A DNA stretch of 64,000 bases from an uncultured Gemmatimonadales bacterium. Its GTDB lineage: Bacteria > Gemmatimonadota > Gemmatimonadetes > Gemmatimonadales > Gemmatimonadaceae. The notes under the pieces were generated by a model. The model was given only the letters and a program-made list of their open reading frames with translations, had not been told where the DNA came from and did not search any database. Within the stretch, counting starts at the first letter, position 1; the number at the start of each line of letters is the position of its first letter. The stretch is taken from NCBI GenBank assembly GCA_963793305.1, contig CAWBZV010000003.1:1472001-1536000 (forward strand), in the 5' to 3' direction. The translations under genes were made by a program, and so were the position numbers. Shown here piece after piece: positions 56,216 through 64,000 of the stretch.

Positions 56216-58067
56216 ATGGCCATGGCCGTGTCCACCCGTGCACTGGAACAAGTCGTCGACGTTGAGACGCCGGAGCAGGTCGTCCTCACGTTCACGATCG
56301 CCGGGATCGGATCGCGGGCCGCCGCGGCAGTGGTCGACTCGCTCATCCTCCTGATCCTGTTCATTGCATCCAGCTTGATCATGGGCAGCTTGGTGAGCCG
56401 GGGGATCCATCACGTCTCCTCGGTCGAGTCCATCATCCTTGCGCTCTGGGTCCTGCTTACCTTCGCGATGGTCTGGGGTTACTACGTCCTGTTCGAGGCG
56501 ATCTGGGACGGCCAGACGCCGGGCAAGCGGGTAATCGGTCTCCGGGTCGTTCGCGATGGCGGATATTCGATCACCTTCGCTGCGTCCGCGGTCCGGAACC
56601 TCACGCGCGCGCTCGATGCGCAGCCGGGTGTCTTCTATTTCGTCGGGCTGGTCAGCGCGATCATCTCGCCGAGTGGCAAGCGACTGGGCGACTATGCCGC
56701 GGGGACGATCGTGGTCAGCGAGCGCGCGGTCACCGAGCGCGGCGCGGCGCCTCCGCCCATTCCCTCCGGCGGCACGGCGATCGCGACCACGACGTATCTC
56801 ACGGACGACGAGTTTGCGCTCCTCGACCGGTATGAGCAGCGACGCGCCTCGCTCGATCGGGTGCATGCGTTCCAATTCGAGTCCGATCTGGCGGACCGGT
56901 TTCGGAAGCGGGCGCCGTCGACCGTCGCGACCGATCGCGTGTTCCTCGCCGAGTTGTGGGCGGCGGAGCGCGACGCGCGCGCCCGCGGCGCGGCGGCGCG
57001 CAGCGACACGGGCGCCGCGCGCGAGCAGTATGCGCTCGTCGCGCAAGGCGGAGAGCGGTGGCGCGAGTTCGCCGCGCGGCTGGCCGTGTTGCGGCGGGGA
57101 GGGCTGGCCAAGCTTCCCGAGGAAGACGTTCTCCGACTTCGTCGCCCGCTATCGCGAGCTCACCACGGACTTGGCGCGCCTGACGACCGCCAGTCGCGGC
57201 CGGGACACGCAATCCCTGTGGTACTTGAACCGCCTGGTCGCCAGCGGTCACGCGATGCTGTATCGCGATCGTCCGATAGCGCCCGGCTCCGTCTGGCGAT
57301 TCATCACGCGGTCTATTCCTAAGGAGATCCGCCGGTCGTGGCGGCCGATCGTCCTCGCCGCGCTGCTGCTCTACGTCCCTGCGGTCGTCGCCTGGGTCGG
57401 TGTCGTCCGGGATCCCGCATCGGCATCCTCGTTCATTCCGTCCGGTATGCTCGACCGCGCGGAAGAGGGCATCACGCGCGCCCGCGAAGGAACGGGATAC
57501 ATCGCCGATGACCCGCTCATGCGTCCGTTGATCTCGAGCACCGTGATCTCGAACAATATCGGTGTGTCATTCAGCGCATTCGCCGGCGGACTCTCGGCGG
57601 GCATCCTCACCGTGGTCGCGCTCGTCTTCAACGGCATCGAGCTCGGCGGCGTCTTCGGCCTCTATCAGTCCAAAGGCATTCTGCCGCTCATCGTGAAGTT
57701 CGTCGCGCCGCACAGCGTGTTCGAGCTGACCGCCATCTGCATTGCTGGTGGCGCGGGCTTCCTGCTCGCGGCCGGTATCCTGTTGCCGGGTTCGCTGACG
57801 CGGCGCGAAGCACTGATCGCGAACGGTCAACGGGCGATTCGGCTTATTGCGGGTGCAACGTTGCTGTTGCTCTGTGCGGGAACGCTCGAGGGACTCATCT
57901 CCCCCATCCCTTGGTGGACGCTGGCACAGAAACTGACTGTATCGGGGCTGACAGCGGTAATCCTTGCTCTTTATATCAGCTTAGGATGGCATGATGATGA
58001 TAAAACGATCACTGGCACTACTGACGGCGTTGCCGGCGCTGCTCCTCACGGCCGATCTGCACCATGA
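56216..58067 (+). CDS. RDD domain fused to a SpoIIM-like membrane domain; +1 frameshift at 57129-57130
   Basis: ETPEQV, AGIGSRAAA, GQTPGKR, KRLGDYAAGT; after correction EEDVSDFVARYRELTTDLA, ISNNIGV, PHSVFELTAI, LEGLISP. Confidence 0.87.
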
Positions 58068-58512
58068 TGTGCTGAAGGCGGTATCGACGTTCAAGATGTT
58101 CGATCCGTCGATGGAAAAATTCTTCGACGCGTCGGCGGGATACGCGGTGTTTCCCGGCGTGACGAAGGGTGCCATTGGTGTTGGCGCTGCTCATGGCGAT
58201 GGCGAAGTCATCGTACACGGCGCGGTGATCGGCACGACATTGCTCACGCAAGTGACCGTGGGCGCACAACTCGGCGGTCAGCAATACTCCGAGATTATCT
58301 TCTTCGACAGCAAGGACGCGCTCGAGTCGTTCAAGGGCGGCCACTTCACGATGGCCGCGCAAGTCAGTGCGGTAGCGGCCGCGGAGGGCGCCTCGGCCAA
58401 CGCCAAGTACAGTCAAGGCGTGGCGGTATTCACGGTCGCCAAAGGCGGCTTGATGTACGAGGCCAGCATCGGCGGGCAGAAGTTCAGTTTCCACCCCAAA
58501 GAAACGAGCTAA
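57991..58512 (+). CDS. YSC84/SYLF-like lipid-binding protein
   Basis: Signal peptide, GYAVFPGVTKGAIGVG, GAQLGGQQY, KGGLMYEASIGGQKFSF. Confidence 0.88.
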   Translation: MMMIKRSLALLTALPALLLTADLHHDVLKAVSTFKMFDPSMEKFFDASAGYAVFPGVTKGAIGVGAAHGDGEVIVHGAVIGTTLLTQVTVGAQLGGQQYSEIIFFDSKDALESFKGGHFTMAAQVSAVAAAEGASANAKYSQGVAVFTVAKGGLMYEASIGGQKFSFHPKETS

Positions 58513-58582
58513 CGCCGCTCTACGGTGGCTGTCTACCCCGGCGCCGTATCCGGGCGCTGGGGCCGCGGGCGAACTTGCCCGC

Positions 58583-58924
58583 ATGCGACTCGTCGTATTG
58601 TGCCTTGCCGTTGCCTGCATTGCGCAGGGCTGCCGGTCCCCGTCATACGCCGAGTCTCCGCTCGCCGACTTCGATGGTCGCATTGATCGCGTCGGCGACC
58701 GGCTTTCGGGTAACGTCATCGCCCATTTGAGTCCCGGCAGCCCGCGTGTGAGCGTCGTGGGCTCGGTCTCTGGCCGAGACGTTCGGCTCTGGTTCGGGTC
58801 GGATTTCGTCTTTTCCGGCACCATTGATGACGCACCGGATGCGGCGACCGGCGCGATCGCCGTCAGCGGCATTCTCATTGGACCGGACTTGGGACCTGTC
58901 CCCGAACGCTTGACGCTTCGCTAG
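58583..58924 (+). CDS. Hypothetical small lipoprotein
   Basis: MRLVVLCLAVACIAQGC signal/lipobox-like N-terminus; beta-rich mature part. Confidence 0.6.
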   Translation: MRLVVLCLAVACIAQGCRSPSYAESPLADFDGRIDRVGDRLSGNVIAHLSPGSPRVSVVGSVSGRDVRLWFGSDFVFSGTIDDAPDAATGAIAVSGILIGPDLGPVPERLTLR

Positions 58925-58936
58925 ATTGCCCAGGGT

Positions 58937-59278
58937 ATGGTGCCGGCTCAAGACGAGCCGACGCTCGCCGCGCTGATCACGCGAGCAGCCGACCACGCGT
59001 CGACCCGTATCCTGCTCACCTGCGCCGTTCTGGGCGCACTGACCGCGCTCACGCCGTGGGTGGTACGGACCACCCCACGCGTCGTGCCGACGGCCCTTGG
59101 CATCTGCCTCGTCGCGTTCGGAGTCCGTGGTCTCGCGACCCATGCCTTGGCCGCTGATCCGGCCGTCACAACACTGCGCGTGCTGGCACGCATCAGTGTC
59201 GGTGTCGGCGTCATATCCGGAGTCGTTGGCGCTTTCTGGCTGTTCTTCCTCGCCTACGGCAGCTCATTCTGGAACTGA
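58937..59278 (+). CDS. Hypothetical three-TM membrane protein
   Basis: Three hydrophobic segments; stop codon overlaps a CTG in the frame of the next gene. Confidence 0.65.
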   Translation: MVPAQDEPTLAALITRAADHASTRILLTCAVLGALTALTPWVVRTTPRVVPTALGICLVAFGVRGLATHALAADPAVTTLRVLARISVGVGVISGVVGAFWLFFLAYGSSFWN

Positions 59279-60468
59279 GCGGCCCGAACGTCCCCGTCAG
59301 GCATTTGGCGTTCTTTCGCGCCGCCAGTGCTGAGCTCGAAGGATCGAGCGAGTACCGGACTCTGCTCGCCGGGGTGGTCGTCATGCGGCTGGTCGATAAG
59401 TGGCGATCGCGCGACGGCGACAGTGAGCGACAGGTTCGCGATTTTGCGCCCGTCCAACAGACGATCGACGCGCTCGATGACAGTACGCACCGGCGGGCGC
59501 TGCAGGCTCTCATCGATGCGATCAGCGCGCATATCGATGGGGCCGCCGATATGCGTGTCGCGAGGTTGTACGACTACGGGCTTTGTCTGGAGCGCGACGC
59601 GCGCTGGGATCCAGCCGCGGACGTCCATCTGACAGCGATCGATCTGACGCCGCAGAACCAGTCGCTCGTCCCTCGGTGCTGTCGACAGGCCAGCGCATGC
59701 TTCCGCAAAATGGGCGATCTCGACCGAGCCGAGCAACTCGCGCTAGATGGACAGCGGGTCGCCCGAGAGATGGGTGACCAGCCGTGGTTGTTGCGGTTGC
59801 GGATCACCGCGTCCAAGATCCCCTGGTATAGGGGCGATCTGTCGACGGCGGAACGATTGCTCGAAAGTGTCATCGCGGACGCCGACGCCATTGGCTTAAC
59901 CGAGATATCCGCGGCGGCGTGCCAAGATCTGGGCGCGCTCGCCAGCGATCGGAACCAGCCCGAGCTCTCGGCGCGGTACTTGTACGCGGCGCTCAAGGGG
60001 TTGGACGACCCGAGCGAGAAAATCCGCGCGATGGGAGATCTCGCGGCCGCGCTTCAAGACTGCGGGTATTTCGAACAGGCGTGGGCGCTGTTCTCGACGG
60101 TCCGTCAGTCGCCATATGCCGATGCCGAGACACGCACCTATGCGTCACTGAACATGTTATACGGCGCCACTCTGTCGGGCGAACGGTCGCAGTTCGATCA
60201 ATTGAGCCACGAGCTCCGCGATCAGCCGCTCAGCGCGCGCCAGCGCGCCAGCTATCACGTATTTCTCGGGAAGGGCTATCTCAGGTTCCATGAGCCGTGG
60301 AAAGCTCGGGTAGAGTTCGCGGAGGCGGCCATGGTCGCCCGTGACGGCGGTGTCGTCAGGTTTCGGCGCGAAGCCGAGATGCTACTGGGAATGGGGCTCG
60401 AGGTGATCCTCGACGACATTCGGCATCGCCGCGGGGCGTTCGAAGAGGCGTTTGTCGCGGTTGGATGA
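59275..60468 (+). CDS. Cytoplasmic TPR-like protein, paralog 1 (probable CTG start at 59275; first canonical start TTG 59305)
   Basis: All-helical TPR-like repeats (RKMGDLDRAEQL, YRGDLSTAERLL, DCGYFEQAWAL); end-to-end similarity to the next gene. Confidence 0.85.
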   Translation: MSGPNVPVRHLAFFRAASAELEGSSEYRTLLAGVVVMRLVDKWRSRDGDSERQVRDFAPVQQTIDALDDSTHRRALQALIDAISAHIDGAADMRVARLYDYGLCLERDARWDPAADVHLTAIDLTPQNQSLVPRCCRQASACFRKMGDLDRAEQLALDGQRVAREMGDQPWLLRLRITASKIPWYRGDLSTAERLLESVIADADAIGLTEISAAACQDLGALASDRNQPELSARYLYAALKGLDDPSEKIRAMGDLAAALQDCGYFEQAWALFSTVRQSPYADAETRTYASLNMLYGATLSGERSQFDQLSHELRDQPLSARQRASYHVFLGKGYLRFHEPWKARVEFAEAAMVARDGGVVRFRREAEMLLGMGLEVILDDIRHRRGAFEEAFVAVG

Positions 60469-60533
60469 GGCCACGGGCAGCCAAGCCCGTCAGTGTCTTG
60501 TTTCAAGTCTGTTGTTTTTCGCAATTACATCAT

Positions 60534-61973
60534 ATGTTCGCGCGCGTGTTCTATTGCTCCGGTCCCGAGCGCCATACGTGGAGCGACGAGGCTGACGCGG
60601 CCCGTTGCTGCAACGGATACCGTCTCGTGCGCGGTTTCGAGGCCGAACCGGACGGGACGTACCGTCTCGTCCGCTCGTGGGAGCCCGCGACGGAGGCCGT
60701 GAACCACTCACCGAGATCCGCCCCCGTGATCGACGCCGACCCGCCCATCAACCCGAACGTCCCGGTCCGCCACATGGCGTTCTTCCGAGCCGCGAGTGCC
60801 GAGACCGAAGGGTCGATGGAGTACAAGACGGTGCTGGCCGGTTTGCTCGTCCTCCGACTGCTCGATAAATGGCGGTCGCGCGTCGACGGCGATCGCGAGC
60901 TCAAGTTCCACGAGTTCGTGGCCGTCAAGCGCGCGGTCGAGGCCATCGCCGATAGTCCGGTGCGTCGGATCCTCGGTGAGCTCGTCAACACGATCAGCGC
61001 GTTCACCGACGGCTCTGCCGACACGCGGGTGCCGAAGCTGATCGCCTACGCGCAACTCCTCGAGCACGACGCGCGCTACGACGTGTCGGCCGATGTGTAC
61101 CTGACCGCGATCGAGCTGGCGAGTGACAAGGAGCTCTTGCCGCTGTGCTATCAGCGCGCGGGCATCAGTCTCCGCCACCTGGGGGAAATCGATCGCGCCG
61201 CGGAGTTGTATCGCGAGGGGTTGGCCATCGCGGTCGAGAATGGCGATCAATTCTGGCTCTTGAGGCTTCGCCTCTCGACGGCACTGCTCGAGTTCCACAA
61301 GGGTGATTTGCCGGAGGCCGAGCGCCAACTCGATGGGATCATTGCCGATGCGGACGTGCTCGCATCACCGGTGGCCGCCGAGGCGCGGCACGAACGTGGG
61401 CGAGTGGCCTATGCGAGAGACCAGGATGCGATCGCCGCCGAGTACTACTATGCGGCGTTGAAGGCGTATGTCGATCCGGCGTTGAAGTTCAGGGTCATGC
61501 ACGACCTCGCGGGCGCGCTCACGGATCTCGGTCACCTGGAGTACGCGCGAACCGTGCTCTCGGCCCTCCACAATGCGGCCCACGCGGACGTTGAGATGGG
61601 ATGCCATGCCGCGCTCAACCTCATGCGCGTCGCCGTGCTGATGGGTGAGCAGGTGAAATTCGACCAGTTGCGGCGCGAGCTCGCCGACAAGCGCCTCACC
61701 GCGCATCAGCGAGCGCACTACCACGTGTTCGTGGGGCAGGGATACTTCCGGTTTGGCGAGCCGGTCAGGGCACGGGACGAATTCGCCCAAGCGTTGGTCA
61801 TCGCGCAGACGCACCGCCTCTACAAGATCCTGATCCAGGCGGACGAGTTGCTCAAGACGACGCCCGAGGAGCGCGCGCCCGCGTGGAAAGACCCGTCGCC
61901 TCGCCCGGGCTTGCTGGCGATACTCGACGAGATCCGGAATCGCCGTGGCGAGTTCGCGGTGGCGACTGAATAG
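60534..61973 (+). CDS. Cytoplasmic TPR-like protein, paralog 2, with a Cys/His-rich N-terminal extension (alternative start 60465)
   Basis: RHLGEIDRAAELY, HKGDLPEAERQL, DLGHLEYARTVL; shares PNVPVRHxAFFRAASAE, WLLRLR, YAALK, FDQL and YHVF with paralog 1. Confidence 0.87.
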   Translation: MFARVFYCSGPERHTWSDEADAARCCNGYRLVRGFEAEPDGTYRLVRSWEPATEAVNHSPRSAPVIDADPPINPNVPVRHMAFFRAASAETEGSMEYKTVLAGLLVLRLLDKWRSRVDGDRELKFHEFVAVKRAVEAIADSPVRRILGELVNTISAFTDGSADTRVPKLIAYAQLLEHDARYDVSADVYLTAIELASDKELLPLCYQRAGISLRHLGEIDRAAELYREGLAIAVENGDQFWLLRLRLSTALLEFHKGDLPEAERQLDGIIADADVLASPVAAEARHERGRVAYARDQDAIAAEYYYAALKAYVDPALKFRVMHDLAGALTDLGHLEYARTVLSALHNAAHADVEMGCHAALNLMRVAVLMGEQVKFDQLRRELADKRLTAHQRAHYHVFVGQGYFRFGEPVRARDEFAQALVIAQTHRLYKILIQADELLKTTPEERAPAWKDPSPRPGLLAILDEIRNRRGEFAVATE

Positions 61974-61983
61974 TCGCCACCGC
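61956..61983. terminator. Perfect 12-bp hairpin between the convergent TPR and peptide genes
   Basis: GCGGTGGCGACT-gaat-AGTCGCCACCGC; contains the TAG stop of TPR paralog 2. Confidence 0.6.
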
Positions 61984-61993
61984 AACGTCTCGA

Positions 61994-62125
61994 TCAGCAG
62001 CTGTTGCCGGAACCCGCGGTAACAGCGCCACCACAATCAGCACTCGTAGGACTCGTCGGCGACGTGCACGCGGCGAGCGCGATGACGGTCGCGAGGATGA
62101 CGAGACGGGCGGTGCGTTGTGACAT
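61994..62125 (-). CDS. 43-aa lipopeptide precursor (absent from the ORF track): MSQRTARLVILATVIALAA-CTSPTSPTSADCGGAVTAGSGNSC
   Basis: GGAGGT RBS (62131-62136) 5 nt before ATG; basic n-region, hydrophobic h-region, LAAC lipobox; TGA at 61994-61996. Confidence 0.85.
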   Translation of the reverse strand: MSQRTARLVILATVIALAACTSPTSPTSADCGGAVTAGSGNSC

Positions 62126-62188
62126 GAACAACCTCCAGTTGGGGTGAGCCCCAACGGTAGGCCGTCATGGCGCTATCGCATATGGTCG

Positions 62189-63322
62189 TTAGGTAGCTGT
62201 CGCCTGTCCGTGCAGGCCCGTCACATCGATGATCACGCCCATGTACTCGGGCTCGCCGAGCGCATTCACAGTGGTGTGAGCCGCGACATGGATGGTGCGA
62301 ACCGTGCCATCACCCGTGAGAAATCGCACGTCATGATCGAGATCGCGACGCCGTTTGGCGGCGGTCGCGACGATTTCGTCCACCCAGGCCTGGTCTTCCG
62401 GATACACGCGTTGTCGAAGCGCCTCAACTGAAGGCTCCGGCTTCTCCGGATCGAGATCGAGAATCCGCAATGCTTCCTTGGAGCACAGGATCCGCCCCGA
62501 CGGGACGTTCCAGCCCCAGCTGCCGGTATGCGTCAGCCGTTGCCCTTCGGCGAGAAACGCCTCGCTGCGTCGCAGCTCTTCCTCGGCCCGCTTCCGGTCG
62601 CCGATGTCCTCGACAACGACGATGCCAAAGCACGGCGCGCCGAGCTCATCGCGGACGAGCGAGACCGCGAGGTTTGCCCAGACCACGCGGCCATCCTTGG
62701 CAAAGCAGCGTTTCTCCAGGCGGTACGAGTCGCGCTTGCCGTGCACGAGCTCCGTGAACACGTTCCAATCGGCTTCGCCCCGCGCCGGGTGCGTGATCTT
62801 CGTGAATTGGAAGGTGCGGAACTCCTGTTCGCTGTACCCGAAGAGGCTGCGGATCTGTCGATTCGTTTTGAACGCGTGGCCGCTCGCGTTCACGAGCGCG
62901 ATCCCGACCGCCGCTTCATCGAAGAGCGCGTGGAGCTGTCGCTCGCTGTCTCTGAGCGCCCGCTCGATTTTCACGCGCCTGGCATTGCTGGCCCAACTCA
63001 CCGCTCCAGCGCAGAGCACGAACACGGCGAGCCGCGGCAGCTGGTCGATGGCCACGGCCAATGAGCCGATGGGCGCCACGAAGAAATAGTCGACGGCGAT
63101 CGCGGCCAGCGCCGCCGCGAGCAACCCCACGCGCCATCCGCCACTCCAGGTCGCGCCGGCGACGGCGACGAGAAAGAGCGTCGTGGGATCGACGCTTGGA
63201 CGAAGCGCAATGGCGACCGCCAGCGCCAGCGTCGTCCATCCGAGCGCAGGCGCGTACCGCGCAACTTCGGTCCGCATGCGGACGACCGGCGCCTGCTGCT
63301 GCGCGATGACCATTTGCGTCAT
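62189..63322 (-). CDS. DUF4118-like TM sensor with two PAS/PAC domains and no output domain
   Basis: FLVAVAGATWSGGWRVGL...DYFFVAP; FDEAAVGIALV...ITHP...KDGRVVW...EDIGDRKRAEEELRRSE; GSWGW...VYPED...IDVT, then stop. Confidence 0.87.
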   Translation of the reverse strand: MTQMVIAQQQAPVVRMRTEVARYAPALGWTTLALAVAIALRPSVDPTTLFLVAVAGATWSGGWRVGLLAAALAAIAVDYFFVAPIGSLAVAIDQLPRLAVFVLCAGAVSWASNARRVKIERALRDSERQLHALFDEAAVGIALVNASGHAFKTNRQIRSLFGYSEQEFRTFQFTKITHPARGEADWNVFTELVHGKRDSYRLEKRCFAKDGRVVWANLAVSLVRDELGAPCFGIVVVEDIGDRKRAEEELRRSEAFLAEGQRLTHTGSWGWNVPSGRILCSKEALRILDLDPEKPEPSVEALRQRVYPEDQAWVDEIVATAAKRRRDLDHDVRFLTGDGTVRTIHVAAHTTVNALGEPEYMGVIIDVTGLHGQATAT

Positions 63323-63371
63323 GGCGCTCGAAATGGTAGCGTCATAACCCGTTACCAGCTAGCTCAGCCAT

Positions 63372-63983
63372 ATGCCGCTTTCGTATAACCGCATCGCGGG
63401 CCAGAGTATCGAACGCCTCGCCGCTTTGAGCGACGGGATATTCTCGGTCGGAATGACCTTGCTGGTGCTCGACCTGCACGTGCCGGCGCGCGAGGTCATT
63501 CACGGCGAGGCCGATCTCCTGCACGCCCTGGTTGGCATCGGGCCGCAGGTCGTGATCTACCTCATGAGTTTTCTCACGCTCGGCATTTTCTGGGTCGGAC
63601 AACAAACCCAGCTCAACTATCTCGAGCGCAGTTCCAAAGGCCTGACCTGGGTCAACCTCGGCTTCTTATTCGCGGTAACGTTGATGCCTTTCTCGACGCG
63701 GCTGCTCGGCGAGTTCCCGACCTATCGCATCGCGCTCATCGCCTACTGGCTCAACCTGTTCCTCCTCGGCCTCGCGAACTACCTGAGTTGGACGTGCTCG
63801 ACCAAGTTAAGCCTGACCAAGGCCGACATGCCGGCGGACGTGCCGCGCGCGATACAACGGCGGGTCCTGGGCTACCAGGCGCTCTACGCGATCGGCGCGT
63901 TGCTGTGCATCGTCGGCAACTCCTGGAGCATCGCGTTCATTGTGCTGGTGCAACTGACAGCCGTAATTGCTCTGCGCCGATAG
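63372..63983 (+). CDS. TMEM175 (DUF1211) family potassium channel-like protein
   Basis: RLAALSDGIFSVGMTLLVLDL, YLMSFLTLGIFW, WVNLGFLFAVTLMPFST. Confidence 0.9.
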   Translation: MPLSYNRIAGQSIERLAALSDGIFSVGMTLLVLDLHVPAREVIHGEADLLHALVGIGPQVVIYLMSFLTLGIFWVGQQTQLNYLERSSKGLTWVNLGFLFAVTLMPFSTRLLGEFPTYRIALIAYWLNLFLLGLANYLSWTCSTKLSLTKADMPADVPRAIQRRVLGYQALYAIGALLCIVGNSWSIAFIVLVQLTAVIALRR

Positions 63984-64000
63984 CGCCCTCGGGCGTGTCC

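Follow-up and report, generated by a model that had tools for sequence, protein, structure and literature searches.

Quorum sensing through peptides that are bound by cytoplasmic receptors is described for Gram-positive Bacillota, as opposed to the small-molecule signals of Pseudomonadota and Actinomycetota, in PMC10075063. The same paper gives a five-point signature for the RRNPP systems, Gram-positive in scope, whose strict level asks for Sec/SPI export of the propeptide and whose relaxed level admits Sec/SPII. Rap proteins contact Spo0F or ComA with their N-terminal bundles, which the peptide displaces (PMC3601965), and the signal is found repeated within the Phr propeptide (PMC5199041). 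Here we analyze a locus in a stretch of 64,000 nucleotides (nt) from an uncultured Gemmatimonadales bacterium (contig CAWBZV010000003.1, positions 1,472,001 to 1,536,000), in the following termed the window. Two tandem genes for tetratricopeptide repeat (TPR) proteins, receptors A and B, are met there by a convergent gene for a lipopeptide of 43 amino acids (aa). The ancestral cassette comprises three genes, namely the receptor, the convergent peptide and, divergent from the peptide, an AraC-type protein. With a probability of about 0.7 we regard it as a Rap-Phr-like peptide signalling system of Gemmatimonadota, a little-studied diderm phylum of soil and water.

Similar to Rap-Phr (RapH-Spo0F, RapF-ComA, Rap of pLS20, RapI of ICEBs1), the receptor is a cytoplasmic all-helical protein of about 400 aa with an N-terminal bundle and TPRs, a small exported propeptide is encoded next to it and its N-terminus binds, here by model, a protein of the response-regulator type; paralogue expansion with orphans, a repeated signal in the propeptide and copies on mobile elements are shared as well (PMC3601965, PMC5199041 and PMC9765709 for Rap-Phr). 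In contrast to Rap-Phr, the host is diderm, the peptide gene is convergent, a lipoprotein serves as precursor and in most cases contains a two-Cys loop, and the cassette itself encodes the target, a dedicated AraC activator whose receiver is degenerate. NprR-NprX, PlcR-PapR, AimR-AimP, Rgg-SHP and PrgX likewise combine a TPR receptor with an allele-specific peptide and feedback on the peptide promoter, the latter being presumed here; unlike in those systems, DNA binding resides on the separate AraC protein. In line with the original prediction, which was made from the letters of the window alone, no helix-turn-helix (HTH) was matched in A or B or was among the Pfam families listed for 77 receptors, a feature shared with Rap.

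Compared with the RRNPP signature, the propeptide lies within 10–100 aa, and receptors of 387 and 479 aa with TPRs lie within 250–500 aa. The genes are adjacent, 20 nt apart here and neighbors family-wide. The lipobox of the precursor, assigned by rule, would fit the relaxed Sec/SPII level only. The host is no Gram-positive (Bacillota) bacterium or mobile element of one, the Atlas clusters being commonest in Gemmatimonadota, the binding of a response regulator by a Rap-type N-terminal bundle is found in a model only, and the N-terminal HTH of the HTH-bearing RRNPP receptors was not among the hits. The top-ranked titles and abstracts of a literature search contained no description of the cassette, with subscription papers and supplements, whose family lists could mention it, largely outside its coverage.

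Results and Discussion

Linkage of receptor and peptide

The linkage is real, family-wide and exceeds chance. An iterated profile revealed 26 frames of the receptor family at 22 loci in the genome of the window (G000; G-numbers denote genomes, L-numbers individual loci), five of the loci being frameshifted or truncated. A rule-based scan of the 5.7 Mb genome, blind to the receptors, returned 14 short lipopeptide open reading frames (ORFs). Ten of these lie at most 100 nt from a family receptor, nine convergent after it and one upstream; an eleventh, with a read-through stop, adjoins a frameshifted receptor. In the control, a convergent short lipopeptide neighbor was found for 1 of 1265 other coding-like ORFs of 380–600 aa.

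With B as query, relatives occurred in 20 of 31 genomes, with 7–29 matches per genome in its own genus and 1–3 elsewhere. A profile of 77 receptors matched in 76 of 151 phylum genomes at E≤1e-15, strongly in two families (f1, 23 of 31 genomes; f2, 43 of 72) and weakly beyond the order; both tallies include the unpublished genomes G012, G077 and G116, on which nothing else stated here depends. From the latter scan 70 loci were examined (30 returned, 40 picked by rank and for distance). The layout is retained across at least two families at 21–45 % receptor identity. Homologues generally lacking adjacent short secreted ORFs had been named as the outcome that would speak against the system; a convergent short lipobox ORF is nearly always there. 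Weak matches in G009 and G006 were TPR-HD proteins of another kind and were discarded.

A tree was built from 138 near-full-length receptors, leaving out L032, two other architectures, frames below 390 aa, gappy rows and most near-duplicates from G001 and G004. Of the 74 receptors outside the genus, 61 are accompanied by both peptide and AraC gene, 3 by the peptide only, 4 by the AraC gene only (manual reading showed a peptide at one of these) and 6 by neither. Inside the genus, the 64 receptors divide into 15 with both, 22 with the peptide only, 2 with the AraC gene only and 25 with neither. Peptide types cluster by receptor clade. In one sub-clade (L013, L089, L105) the peptide gene lies on the same strand upstream of the receptor instead of convergent, and one genome of another family of the class (G125, L169–L174) carries seven distant homologues with longer precursors ending in G-x-x-G-S-G.

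In wider collections, the receptor profile retrieved 1489 representative proteins at E≤1e-30, some being generic TPR proteins. Atlas neighbors are hypothetical or TPR proteins in clusters commonest in Gemmatimonadota, and the two closest titled sequence matches are assigned to a Gemmatimonadaceae bacterium. NCBIfam held nothing near cut-off for receptors, peptide or AraC protein. Phage-borne copies were found neither in phage records nor in two viral-contig scans, pattern scans of this kind reaching close relatives only. In three soil RNA libraries from three studies, contigs cover the peptide gene and loose ends carry other alleles; contamination by DNA is possible.

Co-variation of receptor and peptide alleles

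At the B locus, nine sequences with a peptide (metagenome orthologues included) hold seven distinct cores. The N-terminal part of B is 95–100 % identical across alleles and the C-terminal part 69–81 % between allele classes, rising to 97 % where the cores differ at one residue and to 100 % where they are identical. In other orthologue sets of G000, G001 and G004, C-terminal identity amounts to 0.93–1.00 for ten pairs with the same core and to 0.75–0.83 for six intact pairs whose cores are different. Excluded from this comparison were two pairs involving a frameshifted fragment (0.69) and two involving the end of a contig. Thus, the co-variation that the original prediction had proposed as a check is found: C-terminal TPR alleles of B follow the peptide alleles while the N-terminus is nearly invariant.

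In these three genomes the flanks of the B locus are mostly 91–99 % identical and three different cores occur. Nonsynonymous divergence (dN) is 0–0.009 at codons 81–200 of B and 0.10–0.18 at codons 281–479, where synonymous divergence (dS) reaches 0.56–1.0. No positive selection on B was seen, dN/dS being below 1 in every region; judged from the sequences, the pattern is one of old alleles exchanged by recombination and not of recent positive selection. The ends of the recombination tracts spare the N-terminus and the signal peptide in every allele; from one allele to the next it is the C-terminal core that changes, the signal peptides being nearly the same.

Of 89 positions in the first six helices, 4 vary among the seven B alleles. 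Sites of diverse chemistry (core positions 215, 252, 280 and 283) lie 3, 4 or 7 residues from the conserved H211, D249 and N287, which sit on the first helices of TPR pairs. This spacing, taken from helical phase and not from coordinates, suggests a groove. The TPR superhelix of B would thus carry the groove for the peptide, in which His, Asp and Asn are conserved beside hypervariable positions, and B is probably the cytoplasmic receptor to which the adjacent peptide is cognate. A conserved Asn stands at 79 % in A2.

The lipopeptide precursor

The precursor consists of a signal peptide, the lipobox with Cys20, a tether of the TSPTSP type and a Cys-flanked variable core. The core, CGGAVTAGSGNSC, is the putative mature signal and is possibly closed by a disulfide. 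A common signal peptide, the lipobox, the tether C-[TSA]-[SDN]-[PA]-T-[AG]-P and a Gly/Ser/Thr/Asn-rich end characterize all 105 family precursors, whose mature parts mostly measure 20–29 aa. Exactly two extra Cys are present in 75 of them, with loops of 7–11 residues in 71, and none in 29. A core of 7–9 residues is carried two or three times by eight precursors, and these repeats delimit the likely signal. Since the tether also begins larger ordinary lipoproteins of the same genome, it is probably a sorting element rather than the message.

G000 encodes Lsp, Lgt and two OppA-like proteins, and at L123 and L125 an OppA-like gene lies immediately upstream of the receptor. A distant paralogue of the AraC partner precedes an OppA-like gene and a permease at L205:5655-10914 (contig C2 of G000). 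One peptide allele (L078) has lost the lipobox Cys while keeping signal peptide and core, which suggests that lipidation is dispensable.

The AraC partner as probable output

The partner is a protein of 260–270 aa with a receiver fold and an AraC HTH (HTH_18), as in AraC-output response regulators and AraC-XylS activators. The position of the phospho-acceptor Asp is kept in 79 of 81 sequences; unlike in active receivers, the acidic pocket and the Lys look lost on reading of the alignment. With the pocket degenerate, control seems to come from the TPR protein and not from a kinase. In five genomes without a receptor match, the AraC paralogues were all distant ones (best E 1e-41), in comparison to 1e-83 to 1e-94 for six cassette-type copies in G000, several of which are in or near the training set of the profile.

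Receptor and AraC protein of L142, a locus whose core resembles that of the window, were co-folded with paired alignments. The complex scored 0.76 and the best of three controls 0.00; in a benchmark, such a mark was reached by 116 of 157 solved pairs and by 2 of 215 mismatched pairs. At least 88 % of the contacts recur between runs, and the predicted local distance difference test (pLDDT) of the partner is at least 82. In the interface, receptor residues 1–55 face receiver residues 81–122, which supports binding of the N-terminal helices to the receiver domain. Output by protein–protein contact through the helices AFFRAA...LAGxxVxRLxDKW, as originally predicted, is therefore supported by the L142 model, with the amendment that it would act through a separate AraC-family gene of the ancestral cassette that is absent at this locus. 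Downstream of the AraC gene, loci L122–L130 often carry a solitary receiver gene together with a gene of MerR-like or HisKA type, and a pilin-like gene is oriented divergently to the receptor in f2.

Promoter and leader of the peptide gene

A direct repeat with a lag of 21 occurs upstream of the peptide at 51 of 79 AraC-adjacent loci compared to 4 of 26 others. Shuffles gave about 2 of 69, and a lag of 20 (10 of 69) is the sole other one that stands out. Two exact boxes are found at 25 loci, most of them f2 kin; their spacing is always 21, and in 22 a −10-like hexamer follows the proximal box after 38–39 nt, a geometry by which the boxes overlap the −35. In this the 21-bp direct repeats resemble the operators of AraC-type activators. 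Across five f2 genomes the two-box pattern matched 11 times, five at the cassette and six elsewhere, versus two matches for the reversed control. On manual reading, four of the six other sites have the same hexamer spacing, and three of these precede AhpC/TSA-type, SH3-domain and LuxR-type genes. As far as sequence can tell, the repeats before the peptide promoter suggest autoinduction.

A hairpin in the leader of the window's peptide gene is able to cover the Shine–Dalgarno sequence (SD; z −3.5), and similar folds occur in eight of nine clade leaders with a weak consensus. It was not retained as a family feature, z < −2 being found in about 20 % of 106 leaders.

Fold of the receptor

The model of the B core (pLDDT 92) is all-helical, with four N-terminal helices (6–13, 20–42, 50–61 and 67–81), seven helix pairs and tail helices. 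In a wide structure search, LGN ranked first (Z 23.9, root-mean-square deviation (rmsd) 4.9, 288 aligned; first in Foldseek as well), together with Pins (Z 23.6), and Rap proteins held ranks 3, 4, 6 and 7 (Z 20.5–21.2, rmsd 4.6–7.0, 292–320 aligned), two of the Rap matches covering the N-terminal helices. Rap of pLS20 gave Z 21.2 (rmsd 7.0, 320 aligned, model residues 23–355) and RapH Z 20.5 (rmsd 5.5, 304 aligned, model residues 21–355). Phage Rap, RapI, MalT, NprR (Z 19.6, rmsd 6.0, 283 aligned) and PlcR (Z 15.4, rmsd 7.5, 231 aligned) matched as well. The expected likeness to RRNPP receptors is thus present for Rap, NprR and PlcR, but LGN and Pins outscore Rap. LGN/Pins (GPSM2) have been solved bound to partner peptides; unlike the present receptors they are eukaryotic scaffolds with no signalling cassette, and their match begins at model residue 52–56 and skips the first helices. 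The modelled fold fits Rap but does not prove kinship.

On the sequence level, TPR_12 was found in 71 of 77 receptors at E≤0.05. No Rap or other RRNPP protein was among the best 60 of 143 sequence matches, and no RRNPP-specific model among 25 of the 41 Pfam families listed for receptors.

Proposed mechanism

The small gene would yield a lipoprotein precursor that is exported and lipidated, as suggested by the lipobox and by the presence of Lgt and Lsp. A protease would free the C-terminal Gly/Ser-rich core, often disulfide-closed, and the core would be re-imported, probably by an Opp-type ABC transporter; the signal may range from cell to cell. As the co-variation suggests, the core would then bind the groove of the cognate cytoplasmic TPR receptor, whose N-terminal helices would contact, as modelled for L142, the receiver-like domain of the dedicated AraC activator. 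The activator may bind the 21-bp-spaced repeats over the −35 of the peptide promoter and at a few others; its action on the peptide promoter would constitute positive feedback. For the sign of control we somewhat favor a double negative, in which the free receptor holds the activator off and the peptide releases it. B would be a copy that is paired with a peptide but, having lost the AraC gene beside it, has to act in trans; candidate partners are a lone AraC protein (G000 C4:145070), XRE proteins and the PAS neighbor.

Several observations weigh against the signalling reading or its details. The modelled complex is that of L142 and not of B; B retains the interface residues H5, F8, F9, R33 and D36, but its positions 10 and 12 depart from the consensus of AraC-paired receptors. 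The complex score may draw on likeness to solved Rap–receiver complexes, and mutual information on 81 paired alignments did not recover the interface. The window's locus has neither an AraC gene nor a clear 21-bp repeat, and 27 of the 64 receptors within the genus are without a peptide. As LGN and Pins score above Rap, the fold is not specific. The compared genomes are kin and not independent, and dS is also raised at the receptor 3′ region (0.36–1.0 versus 0.07–0.18). Since this region adjoins the core in the DNA, one tract swaps both and linkage alone gives co-variation. Finally, the lipid anchor and the outer membrane are obstacles to a diffusible signal.

The latter point leads to an unlikely alternative, a private loop in which each cell cuts the core in its periplasm and takes it back up itself, as a timer or as a gauge of the envelope or export state and not as a message to other cells. 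An anchored lipoprotein would be retained behind the outer membrane, and the tether being shared with ordinary larger lipoproteins fits such a role. What this leaves unexplained is why one locus should have at least seven alleles that are deep and balanced, and why several alleles occur in one soil library. We give still less credit to a kin tag or toxin–immunity pair, in which the lipopeptide would be an anchored or vesicle-borne badge or antibacterial and the TPR protein the immunity or recognition factor. Polymorphic linked pairs are typical of such loci, the two-Cys loops in 75 of 105 peptides would suit such a pair, and B's sister clade resides on mobile elements; however, the cores are short, mostly Gly/Ser/Thr with few basic residues, the invariant part of the receptor fits a transcription factor in the model, and PADLOC matched none of five proteins.

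Enterococcus sex pheromones are cut from lipoprotein leaders, and the type II signal peptide of the precursor could similarly be the source of the signal, or the receptor could bind the precursor before export. This is very improbable, as it is the core that changes among alleles with near-identical signal peptides and tandem repeats affect the core only. Equally improbable is that receptor and peptide lack a functional pairing and merely hitch-hike on recombination tracts, as the climb of dS with dN over the 3′ region and the many orphans in the genus would allow, given the layout kept at 21–45 % receptor identity and tract ends that spare N-terminus and signal peptide in every allele.

Receptor A and relatives within the genus

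A and B align over 395 columns with 46 % identity (E 1e-99), and both are without a hydrophobic segment (best 19-residue means 1.14 and 1.16). This bears out the two paralogous, signal-less TPR proteins alignable along their length, and the motif pairs ASLNM/AALNL, CQDLG/RHERG and MGDLA/MHDLA were also correctly read. The start of A is uncertain, the same position being ATG, TTG or CTG in relatives. In the tree A is sister to B (support 0.91) and it is missing from the G003 locus, which identifies it as a local duplicate. Allele classes of A are 38–62 % alike in their C-terminal regions, independent of the peptide allele: L217 and L020 have near-identical cores and B, but A alleles only 42 % alike, whereas L217 and L220 have the same A (96 %) with different cores. 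A was therefore rejected as a second receptor for the adjacent peptide, and by its sequence pattern it is an orphan duplicate that serves as an internal negative control for the co-variation of B. From the tandem cassette first proposed, the probable pairing of B with the peptide remains and A drops out.

The cassette has expanded to about 20 copies in the window's genus. The sister clade of B (L208, L209, L210 and L211) lies on integrative elements with integrases, a phage-type primase, transposases and XRE genes, and a control of element mobility by the peptide is possible there. Four of the 15 XRE genes of that type in G000 are within about 1.5 kb of a receptor. At L001:4707-6454 (contig C5 of G000) a peptide-less receptor with an AraC gene is followed by PqqD-like and transglutaminase-like genes that resemble the lasso-peptide B1/B2 pattern, possibly a regulated cluster for a ribosomally synthesized and post-translationally modified peptide.

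Features of the locus

The features are collected in Table 1. Both the convergent lipopeptide gene with its ribosome binding site and the 12-bp hairpin over the TPR stop are present as the letters had suggested. The stem of the hairpin shows a compensatory change (T-A to A-T) in relatives; the hairpin may end or stabilize both convergent transcripts. It was not among the terminators listed by the scan and, with z < −2 at only about 35 % of 106 family junctions, was rejected as a family-wide intrinsic terminator. The N-terminal Cys/His module of B, possibly metal-binding, had no Pfam match.

Table 1. Positions of the features at the receptor–peptide locus, in coordinates of the window.
Feature	Position	Strand	Remarks
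Receptor A (TPR-A)	59305-60468	+	387 aa from TTG; without the N-terminal Cys/His module of B
Receptor B (TPR-B)	60534-61973	+	479 aa; TPR hits, all-helical model
N-terminal Cys/His module of B (CxGPxxHxW...CCNG)	60549..60617	+	found 6 times in the genome, each time at a receptor-family locus
N-terminal helical domain of B	60759..61001	+	dN 0-0.009 at codons 81-200; predicted protein-binding output surface, homologous to residues 1-55 of the L142 receptor
TPR superhelix of B	61017..61856	+	seven helix pairs and capping helix (from model helices)
12-bp hairpin over the B stop, between the convergent genes	61956..61983	.	fold z −3.6 (+), −5.6 (−)
Lipopeptide precursor, 43 aa	61994-62125	−	lipobox LAA-C20; GGAGG 6 nt before ATG
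Variable core CGGAVTAGSGNSC	61997..62035	−	residues 31-43; seven alleles at the locus
Leader of the peptide gene	62123..62169	−	SD 62132-62136; possible −10 hexamer 62154-62159; hairpin able to cover the SD
DUF4118-PAS-PAS membrane protein	62189..63322	−	no output domain; domain hits; dN 0.018, dS 0.167

The PAS sensor was correctly described as output-less, with DUF4118 and two PAS domains, but it is not a core component, since among the loci searched it was found beside B orthologues only. Past it, a gene for a TMEM175-family channel lies at 63372-63983, in sequence absent from G001 and G004. Directly 5′ of A (58583-59278) are two short ORFs, lipoprotein-like and membrane protein, with no Pfam match and with the same split in L020. 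RDD and SpoIIM domains in two overlapping frames (56216-58067) suggest one gene with a frameshift near 57130; as five receptor loci of the assembly are broken too, assembly indels are a possible cause. Rfam gave no match in 58400-64000.

Conclusion

Most likely, this conserved system works like Rap-Phr with features of its own: a lipoprotein precursor, a Cys loop, the convergent layout, a receiver-AraC partner and probable autoinduction. We give a little better than even odds to a wider reading, namely phylum-wide intracellular peptide quorum sensing in diderms, possibly of an origin independent from Rap-Phr. Its signals would be cut from lipoproteins and often be disulfide-closed, and the TPR receptor would gate a receiver-AraC activator that needs no kinase, as part of an autoinducing loop. 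By the convergent layout both specificity determinants would stay together in one swappable tract, and the cassette would have multiplied in one soil genus, where a sub-clade sits on mobile elements next to XRE repressors.

If true, peptide communication would be extended across the outer membrane, in an abundant and mostly uncultured diderm soil phylum, and the question would be raised how a lipid-anchored precursor becomes a signal. The testable parts, i.e. receptor, signal alleles, activator, operator and promoter geometry, are all in hand, and a laboratory host could serve to rebuild the system with no need for a culture of the organism. The more than 100 receptor–peptide pairs are a possible source of orthogonal switches.

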